DNA from: Escherichia phage AV126
Sequence record: OR352956.1
Length of the DNA: 64,000 bases
Strand: one strand, 5' to 3'
The notes beneath the pieces are model-generated. The model was not told the origin of the DNA, ran no database searches, and saw only the letters and a program-made list of their open reading frames with translations. Made by a program: the position numbers and the translations under genes. This document shows positions 1,754-53,319 of the stretch, in pieces (within the stretch, counting starts at the first letter, position 1; the number at the start of each line of letters is the position of its first letter).

Positions 1754-1782
1754 TTGACAAAAGTCACTTTAAAGTGTATTAT
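1754..1782 (+). promoter_or_regulatory. sigma70-like promoter, TTGACA-N17-TATTAT, upstream of portal gene
   Basis: Consensus -35 at 1754-1759, 17 nt spacer, -10 at 1777-1782; second TATAAT at 1804-1809; in terminase-portal intergenic gap. Confidence 0.5.
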
Positions 1783-1851
1783 AACTAGATAGGTGAGGTT
1801 GTATATAATACAGCCTTGCCTTAACGATTTTATACCTGACTGGAGGAACAA

Positions 1852-3417
1852 GTGTCAACAGGAAAAAGAACGTACACTAAAAAGTCAGAATACTGGGACA
1901 AAGGTGCTGCAAATAAAGCTGCTCTCTCTCCAACAAAAGAAGCAGAGAAAGAGAAAACGTTACTCCTGTCACCTGAAATAGGAACGATCGGATTAAACTC
2001 AATCAAAGCATTTACGAATTTCATGCAACCTTATGAGACTCGTTTCCCAGAATGTATTCGCACTTTTAAAGAGATGGGTGAAGACCCTGATGTAGCTACT
2101 GCTCTTGACGCTACATATATCTTTGTAGATAGAGCATTCTTTGATTTCAAGATAAAATACAATGTAAACTCGGCAAAGTCAAGAAAAGCTGCTAAGTTTA
2201 TTGATTACATGTTACGCAATATGCAAGCCCCTCTACGTCAATATGTTAGATCACTTTTGACATATAAGCAATATGGTTTTGCATTCGCAGAGAAAGTTTA
2301 TGAGTTGGATGAAGATCCTAAAAGTCCTTACTTTGGGTATTGGCGATTGACCAAACTGGCTTTTAGACCACAAGACACTCTTCACATGGCTCAACCTTTT
2401 ACATATTCGGCAGACGGACGTTCTATTCTATCTGTTAACCAGAATATCACCAATACGATGTTAGCTCCAGGTAATACAACTTTAGAAACTGGTATTAAAG
2501 AAATTCCTTTCAGTAAAGTTTTATTTGTTGGTAGCAACATTACAGAGAATAACCCACTAGGAGTTAGTCCGCTTTTAGCTGTATATCGTAGCTGGCGTGA
2601 AAAATCTCTTATTCAGGAATTTGAGGTTATTGGGGTATCTAAAGATTTAGGTGGTATGCCAGTTCTTAAGGTTCCAAGTGACATTCTAAACAGGGCATCT
2701 TTAGATCCTGCTGGGGATGAAGCACAATCTCTTCGAGTTCTCCAAGCCAACATCGCTAACCTGCACTCTGGTGAGCAAGCCTACATGGTATTGCCTTCAG
2801 ACGTTTATGAAGGCACAGTGATGCGTCAATACGATCTCGTATTCCAAGGTGTTGATGGCACGGGTAAACAGTTTGACACTCAAGCACTAATCAAACAACG
2901 CAAGCTAGATATTTATAACCGCTTTGGTGCGGGTGTGTTGATTATGGGTGATGGTGATGCAGGAAGTTTTGCGCTTTCTGACAACAAACAAACACTATTG
3001 TCTCATTTTATTGAGCGAGATGTAGATATTGTTGTAGAAGCTATAAACTCTCAACTGATCCCTCAAACACTACGACTAAACAATATCTTCCTTTCTGATG
3101 AAGATATGCCTAAGTTTGTCAGTGGTGAAATGGGTGATCCTGATATTGAAGTAAATGCTAAAGCTATTCAGCAGTTGGTAGCCTCTGGTGCAATACCTTT
3201 AACCCCAGAAGTTATTAACGAGTTCCTTGAAAAAATTGGTTTTGAATATCGTATCCCTGACGATATTGTTGCCAATAAAGAGAAATTCTTTGAATTCATG
3301 GATAACTATATGCCTGACAAAACTTCACGATCAGGAGATGGTTTAGCTACAGCGGGAACTGGAACGTCTGATACTGTTTCTGCTTTAGATCCTTCAGCAC
3401 AAAACCTGTCGAATTAA
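1852..3417 (+). CDS. portal protein
   Basis: GTG start with GGAGG SD 5 nt upstream; 521 aa; position after terminase and before protease/scaffold/capsid. Synteny and size only. Confidence 0.6.
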   Translation: MSTGKRTYTKKSEYWDKGAANKAALSPTKEAEKEKTLLLSPEIGTIGLNSIKAFTNFMQPYETRFPECIRTFKEMGEDPDVATALDATYIFVDRAFFDFKIKYNVNSAKSRKAAKFIDYMLRNMQAPLRQYVRSLLTYKQYGFAFAEKVYELDEDPKSPYFGYWRLTKLAFRPQDTLHMAQPFTYSADGRSILSVNQNITNTMLAPGNTTLETGIKEIPFSKVLFVGSNITENNPLGVSPLLAVYRSWREKSLIQEFEVIGVSKDLGGMPVLKVPSDILNRASLDPAGDEAQSLRVLQANIANLHSGEQAYMVLPSDVYEGTVMRQYDLVFQGVDGTGKQFDTQALIKQRKLDIYNRFGAGVLIMGDGDAGSFALSDNKQTLLSHFIERDVDIVVEAINSQLIPQTLRLNNIFLSDEDMPKFVSGEMGDPDIEVNAKAIQQLVASGAIPLTPEVINEFLEKIGFEYRIPDDIVANKEKFFEFMDNYMPDKTSRSGDGLATAGTGTSDTVSALDPSAQNLSN

Positions 3418-3444
3418 AAATATTTAATATTTTTTAATTTTCTA

Positions 3445-3473
3445 TTGACAAAACAACAAATATCCTGTAGACT
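3445..3473 (+). promoter_or_regulatory. sigma70-like promoter, TTGACA-N17-TAGACT, with upstream A/T tract
   Basis: -35 at 3445-3450, -10 at 3468-3473; AT-rich UP-like tract 3415-3443; between portal and protease genes. Confidence 0.4.
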
Positions 3474-3509
3474 AAGATTTATGGGATATCTGTTTTTAAG
3501 AGGTTTCAA

Positions 3510-6548: not shown

Positions 6549-6568
6549 TAGAACTCTGTTAAGATTAG

Positions 6569-6602
6569 AGGCTCGTCCGTGATGGGCGAGCCTTTTCTGT
6601 TT
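6569..6602 (+). terminator. intrinsic terminator after capsid gene
   Basis: AGGCTCGTCC-gtgat-GGGCGAGCCT hairpin followed by TTTTCTGTTT. Confidence 0.7.
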
Positions 6603-6632
6603 ACAATAAGAGTTTACAACGAGGAGATTGAT

Positions 6633-6977
6633 ATGTCAAACCCAGAATTGAAACGTTACTTTAGTTATCACGAAATGATTCGTGATTTCGAATCGCTTTC
6701 ACCACTGATCGATGCTGATAAAACATTAGTATCTGCGCCACCAATGTCTTTCTATCTGAAAGATGGTCGTATTGCATTAGGTGGAAACTTCATTCACTTC
6801 CTCACGCGTTTGAGAGAAGAAACAGGTATTCTTGTGCATCCTTTTGCAAGTGAAGAACACATGGGTTACTATCTTGTAAGTTACGAAGACTATGCACCTG
6901 TAAAAATCAAAGAAGAAGTTTTAAAAGTAGAAGCGGTAGACACTCCAGCTAAAAAACGTTCCCTTCGTAAAAAATAA
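6633..6977 (+). CDS. hypothetical head-tail connector region protein
   Basis: ATG at 6633 with GAGGAG SD; ORF-track start 6579 lies inside the terminator hairpin and is rejected; 114 aa. Confidence 0.5.
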   Translation: MSNPELKRYFSYHEMIRDFESLSPLIDADKTLVSAPPMSFYLKDGRIALGGNFIHFLTRLREETGILVHPFASEEHMGYYLVSYEDYAPVKIKEEVLKVEAVDTPAKKRSLRKK

Positions 6978-8024: not shown

Positions 8025-8053
8025 TTGCATAAACTTTGTTTTTGATGTATACT
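8025..8053 (+). promoter_or_regulatory. candidate sigma70-like promoter, TTGCAT-N17-TATACT
   Basis: -35 at 8025-8030, -10 at 8048-8053; -10 is close to the downstream SD, so the leader would be very short. Confidence 0.3.
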
Positions 8054-13853: not shown

Positions 13854-13860
13854 TAAAATA

Positions 13861-13882
13861 CCTCGCTTCGGCGGGGTTTTTT
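13861..13882 (+). terminator. intrinsic terminator after tape measure gene (UUCG tetraloop)
   Basis: CCTCGC-TTCG-GCGGGG hairpin followed by TTTTTT. Confidence 0.75.
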
Positions 13883-13890
13883 CGTTTCCC

Positions 13891-13920
13891 TTGACACGAA
13901 GTTTCTATATGTGTTACAAT
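13891..13920 (+). promoter_or_regulatory. sigma70-like promoter, TTGACA-N18-TACAAT
   Basis: -35 at 13891-13896, -10 at 13915-13920, just after the terminator; followed by 5'-UTR hairpin GGAAGAT-cttgc-ATCTTCC (13931-13949). Confidence 0.5.
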
Positions 13921-17952: not shown

Positions 17953-20828
17953 TGTCAAGAGTTAAGCACAATATTGACAACACGTTTCAGTTGATTGAAG
18001 GGTTGGTTCAGTTTCTGGAAAGAAATACTGGGCTTACTATAGATCCTACGGTTCAGCACTACATTATCAACCCACAAAACGTATTGGCGAACAACAGACA
18101 CTTTATTAACTGGACAGCGCAGGAAGGGCAACCAAACGGTGACGCTACTACCGAAGGTCAATCTGTGCTTATCACTGGTTTTGCTTATGCATATTTGGCT
18201 ACAGGGGATAAAAAATATCTTGAATCTGCCGAAAAGTATTGGCAAGCTTATATAGATGGCTTCTTCGGGGGCCAACCTATTCCTGATCCTCCGGCTAAAT
18301 ATCGTCCCAACTGGATCATCAATGGTAAAGAACCACGTTTAGCACATTACCCTCTCACAGACGATGGGTATCCTACGCACGGTGGGTTCAAAGGTAGCAT
18401 GATGACTTGGATTAACGGAAGAACTGTTATTCCTAAAGGTGCGCCACATTGGGGAGAATATTTAGATAAAGCTTGGTTTGCTTTCAATGGCAATCTTGGT
18501 TGGAACTCCGTTAACGCAACAGTTTATGCAATTAACCCAGACGGTTCAACCAACTGGAAAGAATATGGAGATCAGTGGGACGTTGAATGGATTATAGATC
18601 GTCTAGGACGTAAAGTTGATTGGGATGGTAACATTTTATCTACAGGTCACAGCTTTGCAGAATATGGAACAGTGCAACTTAAAAATGCTTCTGTGAACGG
18701 GGATTATAAATTCAACTATGCTACATGCAACCCTGTAGAACACGGTGGATATCTGCTTAAGCGTAATGAGATGTGGCATAACCGTCCTGTAAACGTTCCG
18801 GTAGAGTTAGGTTATCAAGATAATGCTTCCGATGCTGAAACGTGGTGGTGCGATGCAAACTACTTGATGTATCAGATCACAGGGGAGAGAAAATATTGGC
18901 TTTGCTGGCAATCTTCTTTATTGTTGTGTCAAGACTACTCAAACATTGATATGTTTGATAAATTCTTCCGTAGATCTACGACAGCGATAATTCCTTTTAC
19001 AGATGGTATATCTTATGATTACTCATATCCATCTACAGCAATACCTAAATACTCTCGTGACGAATTAGGCTACACAGTAATTCGCCAAGATGTTGCAGCC
19101 CAAACAACTCTAGAACAACAGGCAGTTTGGTTCAGAGTGGATCAGAATTCAAAACTGCGTATTGAGTTTCAAGGTGTAGATGATGCAGGGGAAGGTATTC
19201 TTTTCCGTCCAGAATTAGAATTAAGCAAGACTAAGAGTGAAACAGACACAGTGACATATCGTTGTGGCTTACCTCTTGGTGCAGCTAATATGACTAAGAT
19301 GGATATACCTTTATCTAGTTTTATGCGCACCGAACCTCCTGGAGGTGGTGTATATATTATTGCTGAACCTAGAATCATTGTTGACTGGGGAAGCAATACT
19401 GTGATACAATATAAATATGCAACTGGTATTGCTGGGACAAATAGTGATCAGATAGTTTCTGCTAATATGGATTCAGATGGTGGTTTTACTGTTGGGTTTT
19501 GGTTAACACCAACTAAAACAGCCAATTTAAAATCTATTACGTATCGTTCATACGCAGATGATTTTAACATCACTATTACGGATTCCGCAGGTTGGAGATG
19601 GTGGGCCATGTTAGAAAAAACAAATTCTACATGGGTTACTAAAGCTTTAAGTCCTGCTGATTTCAAATTAAGTACTTGGCAACCTAATCACGATGACACA
19701 GAGACAAAACCTTCGTCAATAAACCTGACTGCTATTGATCAGATCAATATTGCATTGGATTCTGAACCTGCAAATGGCTTGACGGGGGCAATCGATTTTT
19801 ATTGCGTTAACGATATCCCATCTTTGTATTCTTCAGCCACTGGTGATGATTACACAATGTATTTCAGGGTTACAGTTTCATCTGAAAATCCTTATACAGC
19901 AAAACTTGGAGATTGTACAATACTGGACTACAAACTTGACAGTTTGAATTATACTCCAGGAATCATTCCATTTTCTAATATTAGTGATCCTAACACAGCA
20001 TTATATGACGGTTGGCGCGGTATTCCTTACCCAGGTTATCAATACCCATCCTTATATTGTTTTAAAGGGAGAGATATTGATTGGGTTCGTATGAACAACA
20101 GTATAGACTTTTTATATGATTCACAAATGTGGTTTTATAATAAGTTTGCCCCTGTGATGCCTGGGCCAATGGCACAAGCTTATGTTTGGGATCGTTGGGA
20201 TGCTCATAAATACGGAAACAAGAATGAGTTCACAATGTATCATTGGAACGATAAAGCTTGGGATGGTTATGAAGCACGAGCATTCTTCTGTGCGTGTCAT
20301 ACAGTATACGAACTGAAACAACGAGGAGCAGAAGTTCCTGAAAAACTTTTAACAGTTTGTAAAAACTGGATCAACTATCTGAAGTGGTTCCAAGACAACA
20401 ACGAAGGAAGAACACCAACAATATTTTATCCCAATGGAGAAGTGGCAGCGCCTGTAGATGACTTTACAAGTCACATGTCTGCGCTCTTTATGGCAGGATG
20501 TGCTATAATGGGGATGGCTGGATATGATTCAGAAATTCCTAACATTAAAATAGTAGCAGACCGCTGTTTTGAACTTATTCAGGAAAATTATATTGTTCTT
20601 GGTCCTAATCATGTTATGAATGGCTGTTGGAGTTCCGCTCCTAGACCAGATAGTGATAACGGAGTCTTCTTTGGCTTCCACGCTGGAGAGTTGTTACGTG
20701 GTTTTGGGTTGTATGCTTTATACAAAAAACTTAATCCCCAAAATGCATTACCTGTTTTGGATTCGAGCAATATTCCTGCACTTACTGTTTTGACAATGGC
20801 AAACATTAGTGTGGACGTTACCGAGTAA
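17952..20828 (+). CDS. large tail-associated protein, possible glycan-hydrolase-like tailspike
   Basis: 958 aa, Trp/Tyr/Asn-rich; inserted between baseplate W-like and J-like genes; function inferred from position only. Confidence 0.3.
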   Translation: MSRVKHNIDNTFQLIEGLVQFLERNTGLTIDPTVQHYIINPQNVLANNRHFINWTAQEGQPNGDATTEGQSVLITGFAYAYLATGDKKYLESAEKYWQAYIDGFFGGQPIPDPPAKYRPNWIINGKEPRLAHYPLTDDGYPTHGGFKGSMMTWINGRTVIPKGAPHWGEYLDKAWFAFNGNLGWNSVNATVYAINPDGSTNWKEYGDQWDVEWIIDRLGRKVDWDGNILSTGHSFAEYGTVQLKNASVNGDYKFNYATCNPVEHGGYLLKRNEMWHNRPVNVPVELGYQDNASDAETWWCDANYLMYQITGERKYWLCWQSSLLLCQDYSNIDMFDKFFRRSTTAIIPFTDGISYDYSYPSTAIPKYSRDELGYTVIRQDVAAQTTLEQQAVWFRVDQNSKLRIEFQGVDDAGEGILFRPELELSKTKSETDTVTYRCGLPLGAANMTKMDIPLSSFMRTEPPGGGVYIIAEPRIIVDWGSNTVIQYKYATGIAGTNSDQIVSANMDSDGGFTVGFWLTPTKTANLKSITYRSYADDFNITITDSAGWRWWAMLEKTNSTWVTKALSPADFKLSTWQPNHDDTETKPSSINLTAIDQINIALDSEPANGLTGAIDFYCVNDIPSLYSSATGDDYTMYFRVTVSSENPYTAKLGDCTILDYKLDSLNYTPGIIPFSNISDPNTALYDGWRGIPYPGYQYPSLYCFKGRDIDWVRMNNSIDFLYDSQMWFYNKFAPVMPGPMAQAYVWDRWDAHKYGNKNEFTMYHWNDKAWDGYEARAFFCACHTVYELKQRGAEVPEKLLTVCKNWINYLKWFQDNNEGRTPTIFYPNGEVAAPVDDFTSHMSALFMAGCAIMGMAGYDSEIPNIKIVADRCFELIQENYIVLGPNHVMNGCWSSAPRPDSDNGVFFGFHAGELLRGFGLYALYKKLNPQNALPVLDSSNIPALTVLTMANISVDVTE

Positions 20829-20836
20829 GGGGTAAA

Positions 20837-22990
20837 ATGAAACAAGCTATATTTACTGTCACGCGAGACAAGAGAGTAAATGCGAGTTCATTTAACTACA
20901 CGACTGTTGATGGAACAGCAGTCGCTGGTAGAGATTATATTGCAAAATCGGGAACACTTGTGTTCCCTGATGATGCTGATTCTGCTACCATTGTGGTTGA
21001 AGTATTTGAACGACCAAAGAACTCAATAGATCTTAACTTCTCCCTCCAAGTTTCAGGGATTAGTCAAAATAACATGATGGTTGAAACGACCATCAATTGT
21101 ATTATAACTACGATCCAAGAAAATACTACTCCAATAACTTGGACTACAAAAGACGTTAAAATGTTCTCTCCTATGTATTGGACAATAGATTCTCAAGCAA
21201 CGGAAAGTTGTTCTATTGTATCTCATGGAGACTCTTTTACTGCAAGATTTGTAAACAGAACAACAGCAGGTTTGGCAGGGGTTATCTGGAGCACAGTTGA
21301 CAAATATGACCATAAAGGTGTTGGGTATTTACCCCACACAGATTTAAGTTCAGAGAAACTTTGGTTTAAAATGGAAATTAGTCAAAACATGCCAGGTTTT
21401 AAAGAAGAACCTTTGGTGCCAACTTTGACTGTAACTCTCTTGGATAAAAGTGTCCACTATGTTAGTTTAGGATTTTATGCTTCAGATATTTCAGAAGATG
21501 GTAAAACAGCTACAATCAAATTAGATTTTGGTAATATCTTTTCTGGTCCTAATAACGATATTCCTTTGGACATGAGTGCTGTAGATAATATTTTCTTCTC
21601 TTTGATTACAGCAAGGTATGAAGAAATAGAAGAGATTGTGCCTATTGATAGTCAAGAGGCTTGGTTTACTTTCACTCTCCTTGAACCTACTTCTGGTTAT
21701 AGCATCATGAAAGTCAGCAACCTTGTCCAGCCTGAACATGATATTCGTATGTGCACATCTTATGATGATATGTATAACCTGACTCCAGAGAGAGTTATTT
21801 ATAATACATATGCGCTAGGTTATCGTGGGATGATTAACCATTATAACGGAATGTCCCATTATTATGAGTTCTCATGGAATGGAACATCTTGGGCTTTAAA
21901 TAGATCTGTCTTCCTGAATCCTGCCACAGAAGCTTGGCTAAATAGTTTCCATTCTATAGCAAACGAGAAGGGCTACACAATAATGAACTCTTTAAGTTTT
22001 GAATTGATGAGCACAGTTTGTCCTGTAGAATGGGTCCAGCATGATTGGAACGATGCTCTTGCAGCAACAGGGTATGAACCTCCTAGTTATGTGTTGTCTC
22101 CAACTATTGACGAAGGTATGGAATATTTGCAAAATGTTATTAATAAAATAGCATCTATTTCGCAAGCTAATAATATTCCAGTTGTCATTCAAATTGGTGA
22201 GCCTTGGTGGTGGTATAATACAGCAAGTAAAATGCCTTGCATATATGATTACACTACCAAACTGGCATTCAACACAGAAACAGGTTTATTTGCACAAGAT
22301 GCAGGAACAATAGATAATTATAAAACAGGAACGCCGTTTGACGAATACTATGCATTTTTGTCTCGTAAACTAGGATTAAGAGTTACAAAGTTTGCAACAG
22401 ATACTAGAGCAACTTACCCAGGAGCCAAGGTAACATTGCTTCCGTTCTTGCCATCAATTATCGGCAACGGTTTGATGGAGTTTGTTAACTTCCCTAAAGA
22501 TTATTATATCCCAGAAAACTTCGACTTTTATTGTTCAGAATGTTATGACTGGTTGTTGGAAGGTAAGATGGAAAAATCTTTTGACGCTATCACAATACCT
22601 AATGAACAATTAGGTTTTAGTTATGATAAGATACATTATCTTGCAGGTTTTGTTCCAGATGCTACTCTTGCACCTTTGTATGGCTTTGATCCTAAATCAA
22701 ACTACCGCACATATCTTTGGAAGATGATTATAGGTAACATAGTGTTGAACGCCAATAAGTTTGACGGACTTACACAATATATATGGGCCTATCCTCAAAT
22801 AATGCATGATTCTATCACGGTAGTTAATTCTCAATCCCAAGTTTTCTATATGGGTAACGTGCCTTTGAACGTTTATTTACAGGATATCACTCTTAAACAG
22901 GTAAATGTTGAGATTGCCACCATAAGTGGAATTACATTAGCCACTAAATCTGGAGAAGATTTAGTAACAACACAAAAATTTTATATATAG
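20837..22990 (+). CDS. tail-associated protein with N-terminal Calx-beta-like domain
   Basis: N-terminus TVDGTAVAGRDYIAKSGTLVFPDDAD matches Calx-beta signature (DGTA..G.DY....GTL.F); 717 aa. Confidence 0.4.
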   Translation: MKQAIFTVTRDKRVNASSFNYTTVDGTAVAGRDYIAKSGTLVFPDDADSATIVVEVFERPKNSIDLNFSLQVSGISQNNMMVETTINCIITTIQENTTPITWTTKDVKMFSPMYWTIDSQATESCSIVSHGDSFTARFVNRTTAGLAGVIWSTVDKYDHKGVGYLPHTDLSSEKLWFKMEISQNMPGFKEEPLVPTLTVTLLDKSVHYVSLGFYASDISEDGKTATIKLDFGNIFSGPNNDIPLDMSAVDNIFFSLITARYEEIEEIVPIDSQEAWFTFTLLEPTSGYSIMKVSNLVQPEHDIRMCTSYDDMYNLTPERVIYNTYALGYRGMINHYNGMSHYYEFSWNGTSWALNRSVFLNPATEAWLNSFHSIANEKGYTIMNSLSFELMSTVCPVEWVQHDWNDALAATGYEPPSYVLSPTIDEGMEYLQNVINKIASISQANNIPVVIQIGEPWWWYNTASKMPCIYDYTTKLAFNTETGLFAQDAGTIDNYKTGTPFDEYYAFLSRKLGLRVTKFATDTRATYPGAKVTLLPFLPSIIGNGLMEFVNFPKDYYIPENFDFYCSECYDWLLEGKMEKSFDAITIPNEQLGFSYDKIHYLAGFVPDATLAPLYGFDPKSNYRTYLWKMIIGNIVLNANKFDGLTQYIWAYPQIMHDSITVVNSQSQVFYMGNVPLNVYLQDITLKQVNVEIATISGITLATKSGEDLVTTQKFYI

Positions 22991-22998: not shown

Positions 22999-25005
22999 AT
23001 GTCAACTACAATTACTAATTTACCCGAAACATCAAAAGTTAATGGTTCTGATTACCTGGTTTTAGACCAACCTGATAAGACTGTTAAAAGCACAGTTTCC
23101 AACTTTCTTAAAGTTGCTGGAATATACAAGCATTTCTCCTCTTTTTACGAGATGATTGCATCCACGGAGGAAGAGTTACCTGTAGATTCAGTATGCTCAA
23201 CCGGCGGCACAATGTGGGTTAGGTCTGCTACTCAGCCGGCATTAACATCCTTTACCCCTATAAGTGCGATTTGCGGAGATGATTTCGGCATAACCGCTGG
23301 AGGGTCTGTCCCTGGCCAGACCATATCTGATTTCCTAACTGTAGCTTACACATCTGGGTGCCGTGGGTACTTCAAGTCAGTCGGTGAAGTTACTGTAACC
23401 AGCAGTATAGAACTATTGTCGATTGATAAAAACTTAGTTGTTGATTGGTCTGGCATAAAGCTGTTCGGGGCCTCTGATGGGGTGGAAATGCACCTGTCAT
23501 CAACCGAGATTCAGTCTTCACTTCTTGCTGATATGGATCGTGGCTCTACAGTTGTGCGGGTGGCCGGGGCTGTAGAGGGTGATTTGATTTACATAGAGGA
23601 TAACGAGAAGTACGAGACTCAGTGGGGATTTAACTCCAGGGAGTTGTTTATTGCAGAGCGTGAGTCTGGTTCTGATATGAAAATTGATCGACCTTCCCTT
23701 TTCAGGCACTTGATCGCAAACAACGTTAAGGTGAACAGGTACAAACCAGTAAGGTTGATTTTCAACAACTTCAAGATGGAGCATTTCAATAACCGTGATA
23801 ACTCATCTTTTGTGAATGTAGGCTCCGTGTCATTCGGGACTTCATCTTCGTGGTTTCGCGGTTTTTATATGCCTGTTTTTTCTGGTGACGTGGAGACTAG
23901 CGGCGGTTCTTCATACTCATTGATAGCTTGCTACATGCCGAGGGTTGGTAATGTAGTTGCTAATAGGTGTCAATACCCTATTAGCCCAGCAGCAGGCACT
24001 TATGACACAGTTATTGAGAGCATCACAGCAACATTCTGCCGACATGCTGCCGCTCCAACAACTTGGTTCAATAAGTTTGAGGTTAAAAAGTGCTTCGGCT
24101 ACAACAACTTCGCCACGATGGACTCCCACGCGGGTTTTGATGCTAAATGGCGTAATGTGTTCGCAACGGAAGAACAAGACATGCCGAATATAAGATGCAT
24201 TGGTGGTGAGATTACCGATATCAATATAGTTGCCAGCTTAGGTACAACCCCTGCGGAAGACCCCCAGATAGGTCTCGTTACATTCACTGGTGATGCTTCT
24301 ATGTACAGAGATTGGATTGCCACTAATGTTACGCTCAATTATAAGAACCGAACCGATGATATTTTCGCATTACCATGGCAGGCTGATAATGTCTATTACG
24401 AAAATATTAACTGCATGGGGGGCTTTATTAGATGCGCAAACACAGCATCAAAAATAAAAACAGTAACATTAACAAACATCAATGCCAGCGTGAGACTGGT
24501 AGGTAACTGCGGAAATCTGAAAACATTAATAAACAACAGGGTAATTCCAGATGGTAGTTTCTACATGTATGAGAATGCACCGAACGCGAAGAGAACTACA
24601 TTATGGGAAGTTAACTGTGGGCATACTTCGGGGGCGTCTGCTAACAAAGTTTTAAAGATTTTTGATAACTATGGAACATCAGAATCACAAAACCTACTAG
24701 TAAAAGTTAAGTCGTGCTCTTCATATAATAACGGAGGATCCGTTGCTTATATTGAGAAGACGTACCTAGTAAATCATAAGCTCAGCGCGAACTCTTCCGC
24801 GTCGATATCAGGACCTGTGAATGAAACTCGCATAAACGGCGTGACAGATTCGGACATATCACTCAATGTAACATTAACTAATTCTGCGGGATACACACAG
24901 TCACCAGATATAAACGCGCATTTCTTTGAGCTAACTATAGCTACAGCCACAAGTAGACCGAATAACGTATTCGGTATAACTGTAGAGATATCAAAACTCA
25001 ATTGA
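22999..25005 (+). CDS. tailspike / receptor-binding protein (chimeric)
   Basis: 668 aa; AT-rich conserved-looking N-terminal anchor (MSTTITNLPETSKVNGSDYLVLDQ), then body with higher GC and different codon usage. Confidence 0.5.
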   Translation: MSTTITNLPETSKVNGSDYLVLDQPDKTVKSTVSNFLKVAGIYKHFSSFYEMIASTEEELPVDSVCSTGGTMWVRSATQPALTSFTPISAICGDDFGITAGGSVPGQTISDFLTVAYTSGCRGYFKSVGEVTVTSSIELLSIDKNLVVDWSGIKLFGASDGVEMHLSSTEIQSSLLADMDRGSTVVRVAGAVEGDLIYIEDNEKYETQWGFNSRELFIAERESGSDMKIDRPSLFRHLIANNVKVNRYKPVRLIFNNFKMEHFNNRDNSSFVNVGSVSFGTSSSWFRGFYMPVFSGDVETSGGSSYSLIACYMPRVGNVVANRCQYPISPAAGTYDTVIESITATFCRHAAAPTTWFNKFEVKKCFGYNNFATMDSHAGFDAKWRNVFATEEQDMPNIRCIGGEITDINIVASLGTTPAEDPQIGLVTFTGDASMYRDWIATNVTLNYKNRTDDIFALPWQADNVYYENINCMGGFIRCANTASKIKTVTLTNINASVRLVGNCGNLKTLINNRVIPDGSFYMYENAPNAKRTTLWEVNCGHTSGASANKVLKIFDNYGTSESQNLLVKVKSCSSYNNGGSVAYIEKTYLVNHKLSANSSASISGPVNETRINGVTDSDISLNVTLTNSAGYTQSPDINAHFFELTIATATSRPNNVFGITVEISKLN

Positions 25006-25026
25006 CACACCACAAATAAAAACTAG

Positions 25027-25042
25027 TCCTGCTTCGGCGGGG
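25027..25042 (+). terminator. UUCG-tetraloop hairpin after tailspike gene (no U-tract)
   Basis: CCTGC-TTCG-GCGGG, same motif family as terminator at 13861; followed by GTAATCATT. Confidence 0.3.
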
Positions 25043-25072
25043 TAATCATTGAGAATAACAATAGGAGTACAT

Positions 25073-25171
25073 ATGGAATCTCAACTCAGTCAACCTAAGC
25101 AGGTTATCAACGTCAAAGTGAACAAGCAGAGTATCGCTCATGATTTAAAAAGTAATGAGAACGCACTATGA
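25073..25171 (+). CDS. small hypothetical protein (32 aa)
   Basis: ATG 7 nt after AGGAG SD; stop overlaps next start (ATGA). Confidence 0.3.
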   Translation: MESQLSQPKQVINVKVNKQSIAHDLKSNENAL

Positions 25172-38706: not shown

Positions 38707-38751
38707 TGAATGCTATCCTATCATAAAATGTTTAATATTGTCAAGCTTTAA

Positions 38752-39977: not shown

Positions 39978-42900
39978 TCAATGACAGGATGCCCAGGAAT
40001 TACCCACGTCATATCCGGCAGTAAGCTGAACATTAAGATTGTAAAATTCTCCAGCCTTAGTAACAGCTAAAGCAGCAAGTTCACCTGCCCGACTATAGGC
40101 TGTAAACCATCCACCTTTGGGAGATTCATGAATGTTAGCCCAAATTTGCCCTGTCTCTTTTTCCTTATTATGCTTCCATTCTTCAACTTTAGCAAGGCAT
40201 TCTTTATCAATTTTCTTTTGTTCTTCAGGATCGTCTACTTTCTTCCAACCTAATGATTCAGGTGAAAACCATTTAAATTCTACAAGGCTACGAGAAACTT
40301 CAAGCTGGGCTTCATCGTGATATGCAATCATTTGTTGCACGAAGTCTTTATTCTTCCAGTCATCTTTAAAGAAGTCAACACTTAGCCCTTCTTCTTCGAT
40401 CATGTCGTCATAAATAACCATTGCACGTTTAGCACAGATAACCCCACCACTTTGGAACAGAGAGTTAAGAATCGCGTGAGCAGAACGAGTAGGAACCTTA
40501 CGACCGTCAATACCCAAAACATACTGTTTACCAGTCTTAACCCAGAAATCGTTTAAACGTTCTTTAAGACGCGCCAGTGGGAATGCAGCTTCCCAGAAAG
40601 CATCGAACACCAGTTGCCCTGTGTATTTATCGCTACCAATTGTTTTAGCAACCTTGTCTGCTTGAGCGCCGTACGTGCAGTTACCTGTCAACGTGATAAA
40701 ACCATTCTGACGCATAACAAAAGATTCATTCTTGGTTGAGATACAGAATACATCTGTTACTCGTGAAAAAGCTTTTGTCAACCTCTGTCCTGAAATAGTT
40801 TGTCCGTTATTGATTGCCAACGTTAACATGCCATCTTTTTGAACAGAACCATACGCAATATTACCTGTCATATTGATAGCCAAAGAAACAGCGTCGCTAA
40901 TCTTACCTTTCTTTTGACGGATAACAAGACTGCCGTTTGGACGCTTATGACCATCTGCCATCCAGAATGCCTCTAAGAATGCTTCCAACACAGCTTGACC
41001 TTGATTAGCAATTAATGTAGACCAGTCCACTTCGTGCTTATTTTGACCCACTTCAACGCCACATTTAGTCAAAAATTCCCTAAACTGACTCTTATTAGGA
41101 CGTAATGAATGCATCGTTCCAGATACATACTCGTCAAATGTGAAGATATCTCCCACAGCCTCACGTGCTTCTTCTAAGAATTTTTTCTCATCTTGATCTA
41201 CCGTGACTGTAATACCCATTACTTTATTTCTGGCTTTGCTAGACCACTTATAGTAGCCATCCGAAAGAAGCCAGCCTAAGAAACGACCTTCTTCCACTGT
41301 TAGAGTAGACACCACACCAGATCGCCCTGCTGCAATTATGTTTGACTCCGAGTTTAAATCCTCTGTAGATCTACGCTCCACTTGCATATACTTAACATTG
41401 TTACCATCTGATCGCATAGTTTTTCTCTGTGCGTTAATCCACATATGATCGTTAGTAACTTCTACTTTGAACCACTTGTTACCGAGAGAGACAACTTCTG
41501 CATCGTTATAGTCCCACAGCTTAAGAATAGGGGTATATTCGTAAAGAGCGGTGTGAGTATTATAAGATAAAACTTCATCCCCTACAAAAAGATCTTTACG
41601 TTTCTTCCAACCCGTTCTTGTTAACACTTCCGTATTATCTACAGGTACACAACCGTATTTAACGCTCTTAGCAGGACCACGTTCAAACTTACGTCCAATA
41701 ATATCAGTAATATGTTTTGCCATCATAGTATGCACATCGTTTGGTTTTTCTAACAGAAGTGCATTACAGTAAGCATGATCAGGATTATCATATCTCCACG
41801 TATAATGCGACTCAATCTTCGCCTCTAATGAATCAAAGTCATAACCAATCTGGAAGTATTTAGGAACCTCTACACCAAACAGGTTACGCATCTGCCATCC
41901 AAACAAAGAGGTAACACGAGGAATATTGGCTACAGACCTATGCTTCATACGAGAGGTTGCTGCATCGCATGTAGCCGCTGGCGTAGGTATACGTCCATCT
42001 GCACGAACTGCTGCCAAGAAACCTTTGTTGTATTCTTGATCTTCTTCGTCTTCTTCCCAATCAGCACCGCCACCTAAAATAGAGTTCCTACGATGCTTAT
42101 ACGTTAAGTATTCTACAATCTGTGTAGCATAAGGAAACTTCTCACCCAAAGCTTGCAGGTTAGGACAAATTTCTTTTTCCTGACCTTTGGTAAAACATGG
42201 GTTAGTCAATACTTTAAGACCGCGACCTTTACCTTTTGCTATACGCTCTTGAATCTTCCTTTCCAAGGTTTCCGGTGTGCACTCCAGATGATCACAACGG
42301 TCCTGACAAAAATTAGAAGATAGAGTTTGCTCAACGTAAGCTCGAATACCTTTCTGAAGTTCTTCCTCACTCTTTTTAATCTTGGTGCCAGATTTAAGAG
42401 TCAAATCTTTATCTTTATATTCCGATGGTACCCAACCTAATCCTACAAGCCAGTTTTTAATATGGGTTGTATCGTTTAATGTTGCAGGGATGTGAGGATC
42501 ACATAAAGGCTCATCTGCTGCAACTGGCAGTTTCCACTCTTTCCCCAACATAACTAACCACCAATCTCCATCCCTCTCTTCCAAATGACCATCATGTTTC
42601 TTAGCAAAATTGATCATATGGTTAGTTGGCTCTAAGTTCTTTTTAATTTGCAACTTAGGTGGAATAAAAGCCTTAAGATAGCCTTTTGTTGCTGGTTTAG
42701 GTGGCAAAATAGGCTCAACGAGTAAACGAAGACGCTCCATTTCTGCATCCAAAAAAGCAAGGTTCTCTTCTGCTTGCTTCATGTTAAAAGCAAACCCACG
42801 GTGTTCCTGGCGCGTGATAATGTCTGCTACACGTTGTTCAAGTTCAAATGGACCTTCCCATTTATCATAATCCCCCCATTCTTCCATGAGGTAATTATAT

Positions 42901-43547
42901 ACACTTGTGTTGGCTTTGTTATCATAGATACAGTAATAAAGCATATCCGCAGCAAAAGTCTTAAATCGATCTTCTTCTGGAATCTCTTTACGGAAATCTA
43001 TTTTTACATCCCCACCTGCCTTTCGAGAAAGTGCTGCCAAACTATGTCCTGATTTGCCCTCAATCTTTCGATCTGGGTTTAACACTTTACTCAAAATCAA
43101 GGAGTCAATAAGTTTTACCTTATTTTTGCCCCACGTATTATATTTAACACTGTAATCTAATCCATAAAACAGTTTTGTAGCCAACCAGTCGTAGTTGATA
43201 CCGTTGTGAGCCACAGCCATTTCAACCAGATATTCAGGCTTGTCTTTAAAATAACCTTCATGATTAATAAAGTCTGGGAAATCTTTTAGTTGAAAATGCG
43301 TGTAATCTTGCGCCACATACTCTTTAAGAACATATGTGTATTTACCATCTGACTCTTCATAAGGACGCCCATCAAAGATGTATTTAGGGCCATCGTGGAA
43401 AGCTACTATTTCTCCTGTTTCATGGTTCTCTAAGACAATACAGTGCATTTGAAATGTGTCTTTGAGACGATAAGGACTAGCTAAATAATCAATAGTGTCA
43501 TTATTCAACAATCCGTTTGCTTCAATATCCCATGTAAACTTACTCAC
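39978..43547 (-). CDS. family A DNA polymerase with 3'-5' exonuclease domain, interrupted by an intein
   Basis: 1189 aa; exo motif WDIEANGL; motif A-like DFDSLEAK; motif B split (RGPAKSVKYG / CTYGAQADKVA) by 324 aa insert. Confidence 0.85.
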   Translation of the reverse strand: MSKFTWDIEANGLLNNDTIDYLASPYRLKDTFQMHCIVLENHETGEIVAFHDGPKYIFDGRPYEESDGKYTYVLKEYVAQDYTHFQLKDFPDFINHEGYFKDKPEYLVEMAVAHNGINYDWLATKLFYGLDYSVKYNTWGKNKVKLIDSLILSKVLNPDRKIEGKSGHSLAALSRKAGGDVKIDFRKEIPEEDRFKTFAADMLYYCIYDNKANTSVYNYLMEEWGDYDKWEGPFELEQRVADIITRQEHRGFAFNMKQAEENLAFLDAEMERLRLLVEPILPPKPATKGYLKAFIPPKLQIKKNLEPTNHMINFAKKHDGHLEERDGDWWLVMLGKEWKLPVAADEPLCDPHIPATLNDTTHIKNWLVGLGWVPSEYKDKDLTLKSGTKIKKSEEELQKGIRAYVEQTLSSNFCQDRCDHLECTPETLERKIQERIAKGKGRGLKVLTNPCFTKGQEKEICPNLQALGEKFPYATQIVEYLTYKHRRNSILGGGADWEEDEEDQEYNKGFLAAVRADGRIPTPAATCDAATSRMKHRSVANIPRVTSLFGWQMRNLFGVEVPKYFQIGYDFDSLEAKIESHYTWRYDNPDHAYCNALLLEKPNDVHTMMAKHITDIIGRKFERGPAKSVKYGCVPVDNTEVLTRTGWKKRKDLFVGDEVLSYNTHTALYEYTPILKLWDYNDAEVVSLGNKWFKVEVTNDHMWINAQRKTMRSDGNNVKYMQVERRSTEDLNSESNIIAAGRSGVVSTLTVEEGRFLGWLLSDGYYKWSSKARNKVMGITVTVDQDEKKFLEEAREAVGDIFTFDEYVSGTMHSLRPNKSQFREFLTKCGVEVGQNKHEVDWSTLIANQGQAVLEAFLEAFWMADGHKRPNGSLVIRQKKGKISDAVSLAINMTGNIAYGSVQKDGMLTLAINNGQTISGQRLTKAFSRVTDVFCISTKNESFVMRQNGFITLTGNCTYGAQADKVAKTIGSDKYTGQLVFDAFWEAAFPLARLKERLNDFWVKTGKQYVLGIDGRKVPTRSAHAILNSLFQSGGVICAKRAMVIYDDMIEEEGLSVDFFKDDWKNKDFVQQMIAYHDEAQLEVSRSLVEFKWFSPESLGWKKVDDPEEQKKIDKECLAKVEEWKHNKEKETGQIWANIHESPKGGWFTAYSRAGELAALAVTKAGEFYNLNVQLTAGYDVGNSWASCH
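40680..41651 (-). mobile_element. intein with double-LAGLIDADG-type homing endonuclease in polymerase motif B
   Basis: Insert begins CVPVDNTEVLTRTGW, has TNDHMWI block B-like motif and FLGWLLSDGYY / FLEAFWMADGHK, ends FITLTGN before Cys +1; in frame, 972 nt. Confidence 0.7.
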
Positions 43548-44350: not shown

Positions 44351-44782
44351 TTAGTTGTTAGCGAACTCAATAGTGAGGTCAACTTTACCATCATCAGAAA
44401 TAACCATGTTTTTGGTATTTTTAAAGATGATATCTACTTTACCTTCGCTTACACGACAGAATGCAACACCATCTGCAACTTTATCAATATAATATTTGTA
44501 AGAAAGAATACCCACTTTACTACGACCAGCACCTTTTGTGAAAGAAGGGCTTACATCGAAACGGAAACCTTTAGAAGAAACAACACGGTAAGAACGTCCA
44601 GTTGGGATATGTTCAATAACAGAGACATTGTTCTCAACAACTTTTACAGCAAACTCTTCAGGATGATCCTCAACAATCATGTGTGGGATGGCAAATGCCA
44701 ACGCTTGTTTGTGTTTAATAACACCAGCACCCAGAGCACCAGCAGCTTTAACTTTTGCATTCAGATCGATTGTCATACGCAT
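44351..44782 (-). CDS. hypothetical protein
   Basis: 143 aa; AGAGGAG SD; own promoter. Confidence 0.5.
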   Translation of the reverse strand: MRMTIDLNAKVKAAGALGAGVIKHKQALAFAIPHMIVEDHPEEFAVKVVENNVSVIEHIPTGRSYRVVSSKGFRFDVSPSFTKGAGRSKVGILSYKYYIDKVADGVAFCRVSEGKVDIIFKNTKNMVISDDGKVDLTIEFANN

Positions 44783-44847: not shown

Positions 44848-44876
44848 GTATTTTTAATAAAAGGGCCGAAGCCCTT
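44848..44876 (-). terminator. intrinsic terminator after primase-helicase gene
   Basis: On - strand AAGGGC-UUCG-GCCCUU followed by UUAUUAAAAAU; overlaps stop codon. Confidence 0.6.
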
Positions 44877-46665: not shown

Positions 46666-46944
46666 TTAAAATGGTTCGTTAGTCTCCATCATATATTCTG
46701 CTTCTAGTTCTTCCATGTGCTTTCTAAATTGGAAAGCAATTTCTGCTACAGTTACATTTAAATCTTTTTCAAAAACTTCTGTAGATCCTTCATAAAAACG
46801 AATACCGTCAATTAAAAGCCCTCCGTGGTAATCCCAATCGCTTTCACGAGAAAGTGGATTAGGTTCTTCATAATAGTAATCCACCTCCACGACCAAGGCT
46901 TTCCCGTTACGAGCGGTGTATTCAAAATCAAAAGTGTTAATCAT
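46666..46944 (-). CDS. hypothetical acidic protein
   Basis: 92 aa, Glu/Asp/Tyr-rich. Confidence 0.45.
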   Translation of the reverse strand: MINTFDFEYTARNGKALVVEVDYYYEEPNPLSRESDWDYHGGLLIDGIRFYEGSTEVFEKDLNVTVAEIAFQFRKHMEELEAEYMMETNEPF

Positions 46945-51343: not shown

Positions 51344-51372
51344 AGTATAACACGATAGAGGCTTTATTGCAA
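51344..51372 (-). promoter_or_regulatory. sigma70-like promoter (- strand), TTGCAA-N17-TATACT
   Basis: -35 at 51372-51367, -10 at 51349-51344; directly after G-rich hairpin 51373-51392. Confidence 0.45.
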
Positions 51373-51392
51373 GAGGGGGATTTCTCCCCCTC
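51373..51392 (-). other. G/C-rich hairpin between TerD-like gene and hydrolase promoter
   Basis: GAGGGGGA-tttc-TCCCCCTC 8 bp stem; no U-tract; similar to palindrome at 32558-32578. Confidence 0.4.
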
Positions 51393-52013: not shown

Positions 52014-52028
52014 CTTTTGTCTCCTCTA

Positions 52029-52298: not shown

Positions 52299-52527
52299 TT
52301 CTTCCTCCTAATGTTATCTCCGGTTTGTATATACGAAGAATTATAGCATTTTCATTTTCTTTGTCAACCCATTCTTCATAATCGGGCCATACATGAATCT
52401 CTACTCTACTTACAATATTTTCCATCCGCACAGTCCCAATGAAATATTCTTTGAGACTGCGCATAATGAAAGCTTCTCTCTCGCGCCAATAATTTTCTAC
52501 GACTTGAGAGGCAAGCTCGTCGATCAT
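52279..52527 (-). CDS. hypothetical protein
   Basis: 82 aa; start overlaps vWA gene stop. Confidence 0.4.
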   Translation of the reverse strand: MIDELASQVVENYWREREAFIMRSLKEYFIGTVRMENIVSRVEIHVWPDYEEWVDKENENAIILRIYKPEITLGGRSVKLRN

Positions 52528-53318: not shown

Positions 53319-53319
53319 A

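Follow-up and report, generated by a model that had tools for sequence, protein, structure and literature searches.

Which form of RNA polymerase transcribes the structural genes of Escherichia phage AV126, and from which start signals? The window analyzed here – a 64,000-nucleotide stretch of this genome (OR352956.1) – contains a string between terL and the portal gene, at 1754–1782, that closely resembles an Escherichia coli promoter. An earlier note grouped it with six others as a family of near-consensus sigma70-type promoters on both strands, several with a TATACT −10 element. From their presence in front of late structural genes, it proposed that host RNA polymerase transcribes the late module with little modification, or that phage factors act on these promoters.

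The window derives from a Phapecoctavirus, a phAPEC8-like E. coli myovirus that is ~99% identical to several GenBank phages (99.2% to Phapecoctavirus genomes over the first 8 kb). Only 1630 nt (2.5%) of the window is non-coding. In GenBank records of the genus, promoters of the structural module are annotated rarely or not at all; elsewhere, MZ726793 annotates a sigma70 promoter at the orthologue of one of the seven sites, 59065. The literature that we searched contained no start-site mapping, expression data or transcriptome for Phapecoctavirus or Stephanstirmvirinae. Phapecoctaviruses find wide use in therapy studies against pathogenic E. coli, and our analysis gives their genus a cleaner transcription-unit map.

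Position, strength and frequency of the sites

All seven strings are present verbatim. Each lies wholly within an intergenic gap and points toward the downstream gene:

1754–1782, plus strand: P1754, TTGACA-N17-TATTAT, 12.6 bits, 4 nt after the terL stop codon
3445–3473, plus strand: P3445, TTGACA-N17-TAGACT, 12.0 bits, 36 nt upstream of the gene at 3510
8025–8053, plus strand: P8025, TTGCAT-N17-TATACT, 7.9 bits, in a 45-nt gap before a minor-head/neck gene (8069)
13891–13920, plus strand: P13891, TTGACA-N18-TGt-TACAAT (extended −10), 12.8 bits
44816–44844, minus strand: P44816, TTGACA-N17-TATACT, 13.5 bits, 33 nt upstream of a hypothetical gene (44351–44782)
51344–51372, minus strand: P51344, TTGCAA-N17-TGt-TATACT, 10.8 bits, 32 nt upstream of a SleB-like cell-wall hydrolase gene
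59065–59092, minus strand: P59065, TTGACA-N16-TAAGAT, part of a cassette at 59017–59095

The earlier note overlooked an eighth such site:

38715–38744, minus strand: P38715, TTGACA-N18-TGa-TAGGAT, 11.2 bits

Compared with TTGACA/TATAAT, sites 1754, 13891 and 44816 match at 11 of 12 positions, 3445 and 59065 at 10 and 8025 and 51344 at 9 (8025 and 59065 were counted by hand from the site strings). The −35 hexamer is exactly TTGACA at five of the seven; 8025 and 51344 have the moderate −35 elements TTGCAT and TTGCAA (4 of 6). The term 'near-consensus' is thus apt for five sites and too generous for these two. All seven −10 hexamers, and that of P38715, read TAnnnT. The seven spacers comprise one N16, five N17 and one N18, and P38715 also has N18. 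A TGn extended −10 is found at 13891 (TGT), 51344 (TGT) and 38715 (TGA) and is kept in their orthologues, while TG directly abuts the hexamer (−14/−13) at 1754, 3445 and 8025 and is missing at 44816 and 59065.

To gauge how often such sites would arise by composition, we scored the 17 intergenic gaps of at least 40 nt against composition-matched shuffles. Sense-oriented sites of at least 7.5 bits occur in 8 of the 17 gaps, a count that none of 500 shuffles attained (mean 1.25, maximum 6), and sites of at least 9 bits in 7 (0.27 in shuffled gaps). The antisense orientation of the same gaps yields one site at the lower threshold and none at the higher. Across the window there are 13 copies of TTGACA-N16-18-TANNNT, where shuffles give 3.8 ± 2.0 and none of 100 reaches 13; 10 of the 13 matches are co-oriented with genes. 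In a hybrid of the window and the near-identical genome OR437326, 56 sites score at least 10.8 bits, and 48 of them run in the local gene direction. Promoter-like matches at 9 of 12 positions, by contrast, show no enrichment over shuffles (47 versus 52.6; 62 versus 49.8 in a second scan); the strong intergenic sites alone stand out.

Conservation across relatives

We compared the sites with their counterparts in four distant relatives – phiWec179, phi92, FKP3 and Tr1 – whose flanking genes are 67–82% identical to those of the window. Over 27 orthologue comparisons, the −35 hexamer is 94% identical and positions 1, 2 and 6 of the −10 hexamer are 99% identical, versus 60% for −10 positions 3–5. 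The spacer sequence is 65% identical, and the 10 nt upstream and downstream are 61% and 68% identical. Spacer length is constant at every site but P1754, where the N17 of the window and of phiWec179 is replaced by N18 in phi92, FKP3 and Tr1. Hexamers that are kept while spacers and inner −10 bases drift are the pattern expected of working sigma70 promoters. Two control look-alikes, the antisense and intragenic strings at 3951 and 26973, decay in the relatives. An IMG/VR scan with the portal protein returned only six loci, all of which agree with the other relatives.

Placement, orientation and selective conservation agree with the description of these strings as sigma70-type promoters on both strands, and we conclude that all seven very probably serve host RNA polymerase as genuine start signals. 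Their portrayal as one family does not hold, as 59065 is the only one that forms part of a repeated cassette, and TATACT drifts at orthologous sites. TATACT, though present at three of the seven, was accordingly rejected as a class signature: P51344 orthologues read TACAAT, TAGAAT and TATAAT.

Probable promoters and terminators of the structural arm

Several structured elements adjoin the plus-strand promoters:

1791–1821, plus strand: 14-bp hairpin from about +3 of the predicted P1754 transcript, −20.8 kcal/mol, z −4.8
3416–3444, plus strand: UP-element-like A/T tract directly upstream of the P3445 −35 element
3455–3497, plus strand: 16-bp hairpin with a U5 run, −13.2 kcal/mol, z −3.4 (equalled in stability by none of 200 shuffles)
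13860–13882, plus strand: intrinsic terminator (stem 13860–13877 plus T run) after the tape-measure gene, adjoining P13891
13930–13953, plus strand: 8-bp hairpin with UUUU from about +4 of the P13891 transcript, −8.7 kcal/mol, z −0.5

P1754 sits 69 nt upstream of the portal start (1852). Its orthologues in the four relatives and the IMG/VR loci keep TTGACA and TAnnnT with an N17 or N18 spacer, and the terL–portal gap of rV5, which belongs to a different subfamily, carries TTGCCA-N17-TGgTACAAT. A hairpin of −16 to −21 kcal/mol is present in all eight orthologous gaps, rV5 included, and is built from at least four different stem sequences. These hairpins begin at +1 to +12 in eight genomes from two subfamilies and have tails with 4–7 U in 10 nt; the tail in the window is only moderately U-rich. 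ASO2A annotates a terminator at 1791–1821, and the rV5 annotators likewise placed one downstream of the portal promoter. The hairpin may terminate or attenuate the terL unit, stabilize the 5′ end of portal mRNA, or do both.

P3445 precedes a probable head-maturation protease gene (PHROGs match), which is followed by scaffold, decoration and major head genes. A/T-rich tracts of varying sequence occupy the position of the 3416–3444 tract, a putative UP element, in all relatives. The 5′ arm of the 3455–3497 hairpin includes the spacer and −10 element of P3445. This hairpin is a predicted terminator for portal read-through that overlaps the promoter, and transcripts initiated at P3445 would hold only its 3′ arm. 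The P3445 site is invariant in relatives save for TAAACT in Tr1 and TAGAAT in L015, and the hairpin block that overlaps it is nearly so. Near-invariance of this kind is consistent with a double constraint from promoter and putative terminator; the block is conserved as a whole, so its conservation is not attributable to the promoter alone. We also considered the inverted repeat as an operator and set this aside, as the terminator overlap accounts for the near-invariance and the 5′ arm of the repeat in Tr1 has two mismatches that are not compensated.

P8025 is the weakest and least certain of the sites. TTGCA[AT] and TATACT are unchanged in five genomes. The entire 45-nt gap is highly conserved, however, and conservation therefore cannot tell a promoter from another function here. 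Its −10 element ends 15 nt before a GTG start codon, which would place the predicted start site inside the Shine-Dalgarno sequence.

P13891 heads a ~23 kb unit, with 59 nt separating it from the first baseplate/tail gene (13980). The terminator that adjoins it is annotated in ASO2A and conserved in phi92 and Tr1. Orthologues of P13891 all keep TTGACA, N18 and TGn, with TATCAT, TAAAAT and TAAAAT as −10 elements and fully diverged spacers. The sequence of the downstream hairpin is kept in phiWec179, while phi92 and Tr1 hold different hairpin-capable sequences at this position; taken alone, the hairpin is non-significant against shuffles. No other gap of this arm holds anything beyond terminators and ribosome-binding sites.

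The claim that the promoters stand in front of late structural genes is therefore borne out at 1754, 3445, 8025 and 13891, which precede the portal, head, neck/tail and baseplate blocks, and does not extend to 44816, 51344 and 59065.

Probable promoters, terminators and a repeated cassette in the other arm

On the minus strand, the promoters are accompanied by the following elements:

44856–44874, minus strand: terminator, GGGCTTCGGCCC then TTTTATT, after a primase/helicase gene and upstream of P44816
51373–51392, minus strand: hairpin GAGGGGGAGAAATCCCCCTC, abutting the P51344 −35 element; terminator of the upstream TerD-like gene
59017–59095, minus strand: complete early-type cassette preceding the TerC gene

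Orthologues of P38715 in phiWec179, phi92, FKP3 and Tr1 keep N18 and TGn. Only 8 nt separate the −10 element of P38715 from an ATG (38706), so that its mRNA is predicted to be leaderless or nearly so. The hypothetical gene downstream of P44816 is without a homologue in the four distant relatives, and the promoter accordingly has no orthologue there; Dam methylase and DNA polymerase genes come after this gene. P51344 precedes a gene with a Hydrolase_2 match, and its orthologues have TTGCAA or TTGCCA, N17, TGn and a −10 element of TACAAT, TATACT, TATAAT or TAGAAT. The hairpin at 51373–51392 is annotated as a terminator in ASO2A and has equivalent G/C hairpins in all relatives.

The cassette at 59017–59095 combines P59065, a conserved initial transcribed sequence (ATATCACATGAA), a GC hairpin (59034–59052; −14.6 kcal/mol, z −4.7) and a leader that is rich in A and G and bears a Shine-Dalgarno sequence. 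Changes to the hairpin in phi92 and Tr1 are compensatory. The cassette aligns end to end with 15 cassettes in the early region of OR437326 (121.7–128.4 kb), giving ~16 copies in total. RNAalifold returned no structure for the cassette alignment, as the MAFFT alignment was out of structural register, and copies were instead folded one by one. Counted from the predicted start, their stem-loops begin at +1 to +7; an A-rich tail comes next, so they cannot be terminators. An IMG/VR scan with a 15-mer of the cassette gave 26 hits on 24 contigs, two of which – both phi92-like – have two each; most single-hit contigs are presumably chance.

The cassette invites comparison with the PeSLs of T4-like phages, in which the stem-loop is reported to be a tested terminator and to lie upstream of an A/T tract and promoter (Arbiol et al. 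2010, PMC2839356; Comeau et al. 2014, PMC4122927). Among the sites here, only the 59017–59095 cassette and its ~15 OR437326 copies resemble PeSLs: both combine a strong sigma70-like early promoter with a G/C stem-loop, are short, repeated and intergenic, and sit beside small ORFs without known function in a plastic part of the genome. They differ in that the cassette stem-loop lies downstream of the start, where its A-rich tail leaves no termination possible.

A transcription-unit model

We consider it highly likely that the sites are promoters at the operon boundaries of a phAPEC8-like myovirus and that the E. coli holoenzyme reads them by the usual sigma70 contacts: the −35 hexamer would be touched by region 4, T−12, A−11 and T−7 by region 2, and the TGn present at some sites by region 3. 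Together with intrinsic terminators, the promoters would split both genome arms into transcription units. P1754 would serve the portal gene; P3445 the protease–scaffold–decoration–major head block, ending at a strong terminator (6567–6598); P8025 the neck, sheath and tube genes; and P13891 ~23 kb of baseplate and fiber genes. In the other arm, P59065 would drive TerC, P51344 the cell-wall hydrolase, P44816 the Dam and DNA polymerase block and P38715 two genes, one of them SSB-like. A start 6–8 nt downstream of each −10 element, the strength of each promoter and independence from a phage specificity factor are predictions of this model. A point against this explanation is that transcripts from P8025 (15 nt) and P38715 (8 nt) would have truncated or absent leaders.

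With four sites placed before the portal, head, neck/tail and baseplate blocks, recognition by a holoenzyme of sigma70-like −35 and −10 specificity is the most economical account of the structural module. The earlier note's statement that host RNA polymerase transcribes this module stands to that extent, whereas its 'little modification' is an extrapolation.

Host-type transcription of this phage group is already described, computationally, for rV5, and T5 offers an experimental precedent. In rV5 (Vequintavirinae), Kropinski et al. (2013) predicted 33 sigma70-like promoters genome-wide and suggested that RNA polymerase modification might not occur (PMC3606486). Like rV5, the phage studied here is a large rV5-like E. 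coli myovirus with TTGACA-N15-18-TAnnnT promoters in all modules, including before structural genes, and with terminators that adjoin promoters. The layout is orthologous in two gaps: promoter, hairpin and portal gene occur in the same order after terL, and a terminator is followed by a promoter after the tape-measure gene. The two phages differ in subfamily and their DNA is not alignable. The conservation test given here has no counterpart reported for rV5 (PMC3606486).

The pre-early, early and late promoters of T5 are all used by the host sigma70 holoenzyme, as determined by primer extension (PMC7472727). T5 and the present phage are both virulent coliphages without an annotated RNA polymerase gene in the records examined, and both have sigma70-type promoters before structural genes. 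T5 is an unrelated siphovirus, however, and its promoter use and timing come from primer extension, while the promoters here are predicted from sequence. Near-consensus promoters before structural genes leave late timing, if any, unexplained – the same question already posed for T5, with sigma70-type promoters everywhere. Host-type promoters in coliphages are textbook, and much of the present picture is routine in this respect.

Alternative explanations

The host holoenzyme could recognize the same sites while phage factors restrain or boost the structural-arm promoters, in which case 'little modification' would be wrong. We hold this to be possible, though not the likelier state of affairs. 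Candidates would include an anti-sigma factor or a protein like Srd, activation or repression by a phage protein, coupling to replication, or an antiterminator acting on the P1754 and P13891 hairpins by a logic like that of lambda PR′–tR′ and Q. The recurrence of hairpins at +1 to +12 after the portal promoter in both subfamilies argues for such control, as do the terminator calls made there by the ASO2A and rV5 annotators and the hairpin with UUUU after P13891. The rV5 authors themselves proposed an Srd-like anti-sigma protein (PMC3606486), and T5, whose sigma70-type promoters fall into three temporal classes with an unknown switch, encodes the RNA-polymerase-binding protein gpT5.026 (PMC7472727). 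Terminator-like hairpins follow P1754 and P13891, as a lambda-type late promoter with Q antitermination would have it, with U tracts that are imperfect; the P13891 hairpin is no more stable than shuffles. Moreover, the early-cassette hairpins cannot terminate, so a promoter-downstream hairpin alone does not mean attenuation. No sigma, anti-sigma or HTH regulator was found among 25 window protein queries (15 against Pfam, 10 against PHROGs), whose matches were confined to the Ter family, SprT, hydrolase, portal and protease. Within the window, Rfam gave nothing at gathering threshold.

5′-terminal stem-loops are known to stabilize E. coli mRNAs, as in the ompA leader. Like ompA-type leaders, P1754, P59065 and the early cassettes have stable hairpins a few nucleotides from the predicted 5′ end; the starts here are predictions, however, and the P1754 hairpin could equally terminate the upstream unit. 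We suggest, as a speculation that is rather unlikely to prove correct, that the hairpins at start sites serve this phage lineage as a regulatory device in their own right and are not incidental terminators. This suggestion draws on the portal promoter, where structure but not sequence is kept across two subfamilies, and on the ~16 early cassettes that pair a promoter with a 5′ stem-loop. The hairpins could act as 5′ stabilizers or processing sites that set mRNA lifetime, or, at P1754 and P13891, as attenuators relieved by a putative phage factor. Such relief, if true, would account for the late switch that is otherwise missing. In addition, the repeated cassette might be a PeSL-like recombination module with the order of elements reversed.

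It is very unlikely that the hexamers are kept for terminators, ribosome-binding contexts or PeSL-type recombination cassettes, with most sites inactive as promoters. The P3445 −10 element does lie within a terminator hairpin arm, the P8025 gap is conserved throughout and P59065 is one copy of a repeated cassette, of the sort that is reported to mediate modular shuffling in T4-like phages. But P13891, P38715, P51344, P59065 and P1754 keep only hexamers, spacer length (N17 or N18 at P1754) and, in part, TGn, with all sequence in between diverged, a pattern that terminator or ribosome-binding-site constraint would not yield. PeSL cassettes themselves are reported to include functional promoters.

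Highly improbable, too, is that structural genes are transcribed mainly from a separate phage-specific late class, as in T4, with the sigma70-like sites playing a minor part. In its favor is an eight-copy MEME motif, TggTAaAAtA, upstream of rV5 late genes, which the rV5 authors likened to a T4 late promoter (PMC3606486). We re-read this published motif as an ordinary extended −10 element, TGn plus TAAAAT: two of the eight copies (P036 and P051) have TTGACT or TTGACA at −35 in that paper's table, the rV5 terL–portal and post-tape-measure gaps contain −35-like hexamers 17 nt upstream of a −10, and the orthologous sites here consist of a −35 plus an extended −10. rV5 is also without gp33, gp45 and gp55 homologues (PMC3606486). 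In the window the T4-type late motif TATAAATA occurs at chance level (7 versus 5.1 expected) and in no gap upstream of a structural gene; with −35 hexamers conserved and the other structural-arm gaps holding only terminators and ribosome-binding sites, we rejected this class. TGNTANNNT alone was too loose to serve as a signal (249 versus 201). T4-type middle promoters (MotA/AsiA) were likewise rejected: the MotA box TGCTTtA, centered at −30, occurs five times in the window versus 1.9 expected, with all matches intragenic and three of the five antisense.

Finally, chance matches in A/T-rich intergenic DNA are refuted as an explanation: loose matches are as common as in shuffles, but the gap counts, the nearly empty antisense orientation and conservation across genera all speak against it.

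Candidates outside intergenic gaps

Three further minus-strand candidates overlap reading frames:

52340–52367, minus strand: TTGACA-N16-TGc-TATAAT, 12 of 12, 14.3 bits, the best score in the window
47844–47872, minus strand: TTGACA-N17-TATAGT, 13.5 bits, within the first 45 nt of gene 46944–47888
57555–57583, minus strand: TTGACA-N17-TAAAGT, 11.3 bits, upstream of gene 57028–57540

The first lies inside the 3′ end of ORF 52279–52527, 41 nt upstream of the start of gene 52029–52298, and is alignable only in part in phiWec179. At the second, the hexamers are retained and the spacer has diverged in phiWec179, Tr1 and phi92. The third is covered only by a doubtful, overlapping ORF; it is kept in phiWec179 and is present in FKP3 as TTGACA...TAGTAT.

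Strong sigma70-type sites are concentrated in intergenic gaps

The first 8 kb of the window share 99.2% identity with Escherichia phage iGC_PHA_EC001 and ~99% with many further Phapecoctavirus genomes – phAPEC8-like myoviruses of ~150 kb in the subfamily Stephanstirmvirinae. G+C content is 35–43%, and annotations of relatives define two arms:

1-37353, plus strand: structural arm (large terminase end, portal, head, neck, tail, baseplate and fibre genes)
37410-64000, minus strand: other arm (DNA polymerase, Dam methylase, primase/helicase, glycosyltransferase-like genes, Ter-like stress cluster, anaerobic ribonucleotide reductase)

All seven promoter candidates of the earlier note, named here by coordinate, are present where it had placed them, on the same strands.

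Consensus hexamer letters matched, of 12 (P8025 and P59065 counted by hand)
P1754, plus strand: 11
P3445, plus strand: 10
P8025, plus strand: 9
P13891, plus strand: 11
P44816, minus strand: 11
P51344, minus strand: 9
P59065, minus strand: 10

A search of the window for the strict motif returned 13 TTGACA-N16–18-TANNNT sites versus 3.8 expected (0 of 100 shuffles), 10 of them in the local gene direction. Under a gene model combining the ORF list with relatives' annotation, only 1630 nt (2.5%) of the window is non-coding, and each of the seven sites lies wholly within this DNA, aimed at the next gene.

We scored a simple sigma70 weight matrix at every position, using approximate hexamer frequencies after published compilations, so that scores are rough. 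A sense site of ≥7.5 bits occurs in 8 of the 17 gaps of ≥40 nt, the eighth site being P38715, which the note had not listed; composition-matched shuffles of the same gaps averaged 1.25 and reached 8 in 0 of 500. At 9 bits, 7 gaps carry a sense site versus 0.27 in shuffles. The antisense orientation gave 1 and 0 at the two thresholds. Across the window, loose 9/12 promoter-like matches were not enriched over shuffles. The promoter signal is restricted to strong intergenic sites. In a composite of the window and the parts flanking it in OR437326, a near-identical genome, 48 of 56 sites ≥10.8 bits followed the local gene direction on all four genome arms, a bias that covers the tRNA region and a small-ORF region at 121.7–128.4 kb.

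Conservation follows the promoter hexamers

We compared the sites with orthologous gaps, found via flanking genes, in four divergent subfamily members – phiWec179, phi92, Klebsiella phage FKP3 and Citrobacter phage Tr1 – whose flanking genes are 67–82% identical to the window at the DNA level. P44816 fell outside this comparison, since the distant relatives lack the gene downstream of it.

Identity to the window across 27 orthologue comparisons
-35 hexamer: 94%
-10 positions 1, 2 and 6: 99%
-10 positions 3-5: 60%
Spacer: 65%
10 nt upstream: 61%
10 nt downstream: 68%

Every compared site except P1754 keeps its spacer length (P1754: N17 in the window and phiWec179; N18 in phi92, FKP3 and Tr1). 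This is the information profile expected of a working sigma70 promoter. Across the window and the relatives, P13891 keeps TTGACA-N18-TGn with wholly different spacers and a -10 of TACAAT, TATCAT, TAAAAT or TAAAAT; P51344 keeps TTGCAA or TTGCCA, N17 and TGn with TATACT, TACAAT, TATAAT or TAGAAT. Antisense intragenic look-alikes at 3951 and 26973, examined as controls, decay in the relatives, and six more IMG/VR relatives agree at both gaps flanking the portal gene. The observation holds, and these sites very probably function.

TATACT is invariant only at P8025; the varied -10 hexamers of orthologues rule it out as the signature of a special class.

A probable role for host sigma70 holoenzyme

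The most economical reading of these sequences is that the sites are promoters for the host sigma70 holoenzyme, with host-type promoters and intrinsic terminators delimiting transcription units on both arms. The strong conservation of TTGACA suggests that sigma region 4 must still contact the -35, which would count against takeover of these sites by a factor of the AsiA/MotA or gp55 type. The T4 late motif occurs at chance level over the window, MotA-box patterns there are only intragenic noise, and no candidate regulator emerged when 25 protein queries from the window were scanned.

The earlier note had proposed that host RNA polymerase transcribes the late module with little modification, or that phage factors act on these promoters. 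This interpretation is supported in part: the conserved TTGACA and the lack of a T4 late or MotA class favour sigma70-type recognition, but sequence reveals neither firing time nor absence of phage factors, and only four of the seven sites precede structural genes. A search of the Phapecoctavirus literature found no start-site or transcriptome data.

In the Vequintavirinae phage rV5, 33 sigma70-like promoters were predicted genome-wide, and its authors concluded that the phage might leave RNA polymerase unmodified (PMC3606486). They also reported a 'late' MEME motif, TggTAaAAtA (PMC3606486), which, set against orthologous gaps, reads as TGn plus TAAAAT – an extended -10; for two copies the paper itself tabulates a -35 of TTGACT or TTGACA. 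In T5, host sigma70 holoenzyme transcribes all three temporal classes, the switch between which is still unknown (PMC7472727). As host-type promoters, the sites described here are ordinary: earlier work on this phage group had already described the same kind.

Promoters are packed against terminators and hairpins

Promoters and terminators are closely packed:

13860-13882: terminator abutting the -35 of P13891
44856-44874: terminator abutting the -35 of P44816
51373-51392: terminator abutting the -35 of P51344
3455-3497: hairpin at P3445 (16 bp plus U5, -13.2 kcal/mol, z -3.4)

The 5' arm of the 3455-3497 hairpin contains the P3445 spacer and -10, so as predicted from sequence, read-through from the portal gene can terminate here, and transcripts started at P3445 would hold only the 3' arm. 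This double constraint, promoter and terminator hairpin, would account for the near-invariance of the block among relatives. An UP-element-like A/T tract precedes the -35. The next gene probably encodes the head-maturation protease; scaffold, decoration and major head genes follow, then a terminator with a 13-bp stem (6567-6598).

Downstream of P1754, a 14-bp hairpin starts at about +3 (-20.8 kcal/mol, z -4.8). Eight genomes, among them rV5 of another subfamily, share the order promoter-hairpin-portal, their stems representing at least four unrelated sequences; rV5 also has the window's terminator-then-promoter order after the tape-measure gene. This recurrent hairpin just after predicted start sites is the least ordinary element, and could be a 5' stabiliser, processing site or attenuator.

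P59065 belongs to an early-region repeat family

Nearly every gap among the small ORFs of OR437326 at 121.7–128.4 kb (L011 21735-28500, L011 being part of that genome) carries the same cassette: TTGACA-N16-TAA(G/A)(A/C)T, gTATCACATAGG, a G/C hairpin, an A/G-rich leader and ATG. The gap before TerC (59017-59095) aligns with it end to end, and P59065 therefore belongs to this family of ~16 copies. The other six sites have nothing in common except their hexamers, so the seven do not form the single family first described. In 16/16 copies the hairpin starts between +1 and +7 of the predicted RNA; A-rich sequence comes after it and a U tract is lacking, so it is no terminator. Some phi92-like IMG/VR contigs contain copies as well. 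In composition and setting the cassette is similar to the PeSL cassettes known from T4-like phages, yet it lacks two of their defining features: its stem-loop is not a terminator, and it lies downstream, not upstream, of the promoter. The ASO2A GenBank record already annotates the P59065 orthologue as a sigma70 promoter, with zero promoters in the structural module.

Additional sites and annotations

Further sites were identified on the minus strand:

38715-38744, minus strand: P38715, absent from the earlier note, TTGACA-N18-TGa-TAGGAT
52340-52367, minus strand: 12/12 match with TGn, inside an annotated CDS
47844-47872, minus strand: strong site inside an annotated CDS
57555-57583, minus strand: strong site inside an annotated CDS

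The P38715 -10 ends 8 nt ahead of the ATG at 38706, with no Shine-Dalgarno sequence ahead of it (38707-38751, minus strand) in the window or phiWec179, which predicts a leaderless mRNA. phi92, FKP3 and Tr1 have GAGGA between the orthologous -10 and the start codon, a position that would leave it out of the promoter's own transcript. The three intragenic sites are co-oriented with genes and may point to internal promoters or to wrongly called gene starts; at 47844 and 57555 relatives keep the hexamers while the spacer has diverged.

In the region 6549-6640, the gene listed at 6579-6977 probably starts at ATG 6633, behind the Shine-Dalgarno sequence GAGGAG (6621-6626), leaving an 84-nt gap with the strong 6567-6598 terminator after the major head gene. 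A candidate antisense site, TTGACA-N17-TAAACT (6611-6639, minus strand), overlaps this GAGGAG and ATG; its TAnnnT is kept in three relatives. In OR437326, ~800 unannotated bp at 120.3–121.1 kb (L011 ~20280-21080), where two gene blocks of opposite orientation meet, contain a leftward TTGACA-N17-TATACT that has no annotated gene after it.

The Ter-like stress-protein cluster (51411-59016, minus strand) is phage-encoded:

51411-52013, minus strand: TerD
52524-53318, minus strand: vWA-TerF-like
54717-55829, minus strand: TelA
55826-56416, minus strand: SprT-like protein
58042-59016, minus strand: TerC

Several GenBank records labelled 'Campylobacter phage' (B15, C3; MG065650 and MG065656) share 99% or 75% identity with this group of E. 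coli phages; such host labels look doubtful. The tail-fibre gene (22999-25167), with a 162-nt gap after it, encodes 668 aa, against 921 aa for the ASO2A counterpart and 743 aa for that of iGC_PHA_EC001, a length difference that indicates a variable receptor-binding region. The DNA polymerase ORF (39978-43547, minus strand) carries a 325-aa in-frame insert (residues 633-957, window 40677-41651) that ASO2A polymerase, 98–99% identical elsewhere, lacks. Weak, sub-threshold Pfam matches to a Hint module (E 0.024) and LAGLIDADG_3 (E 0.0018) make an intein the probable identity of the insert. At 1104 aa, the polymerase of phi92 is long as well.
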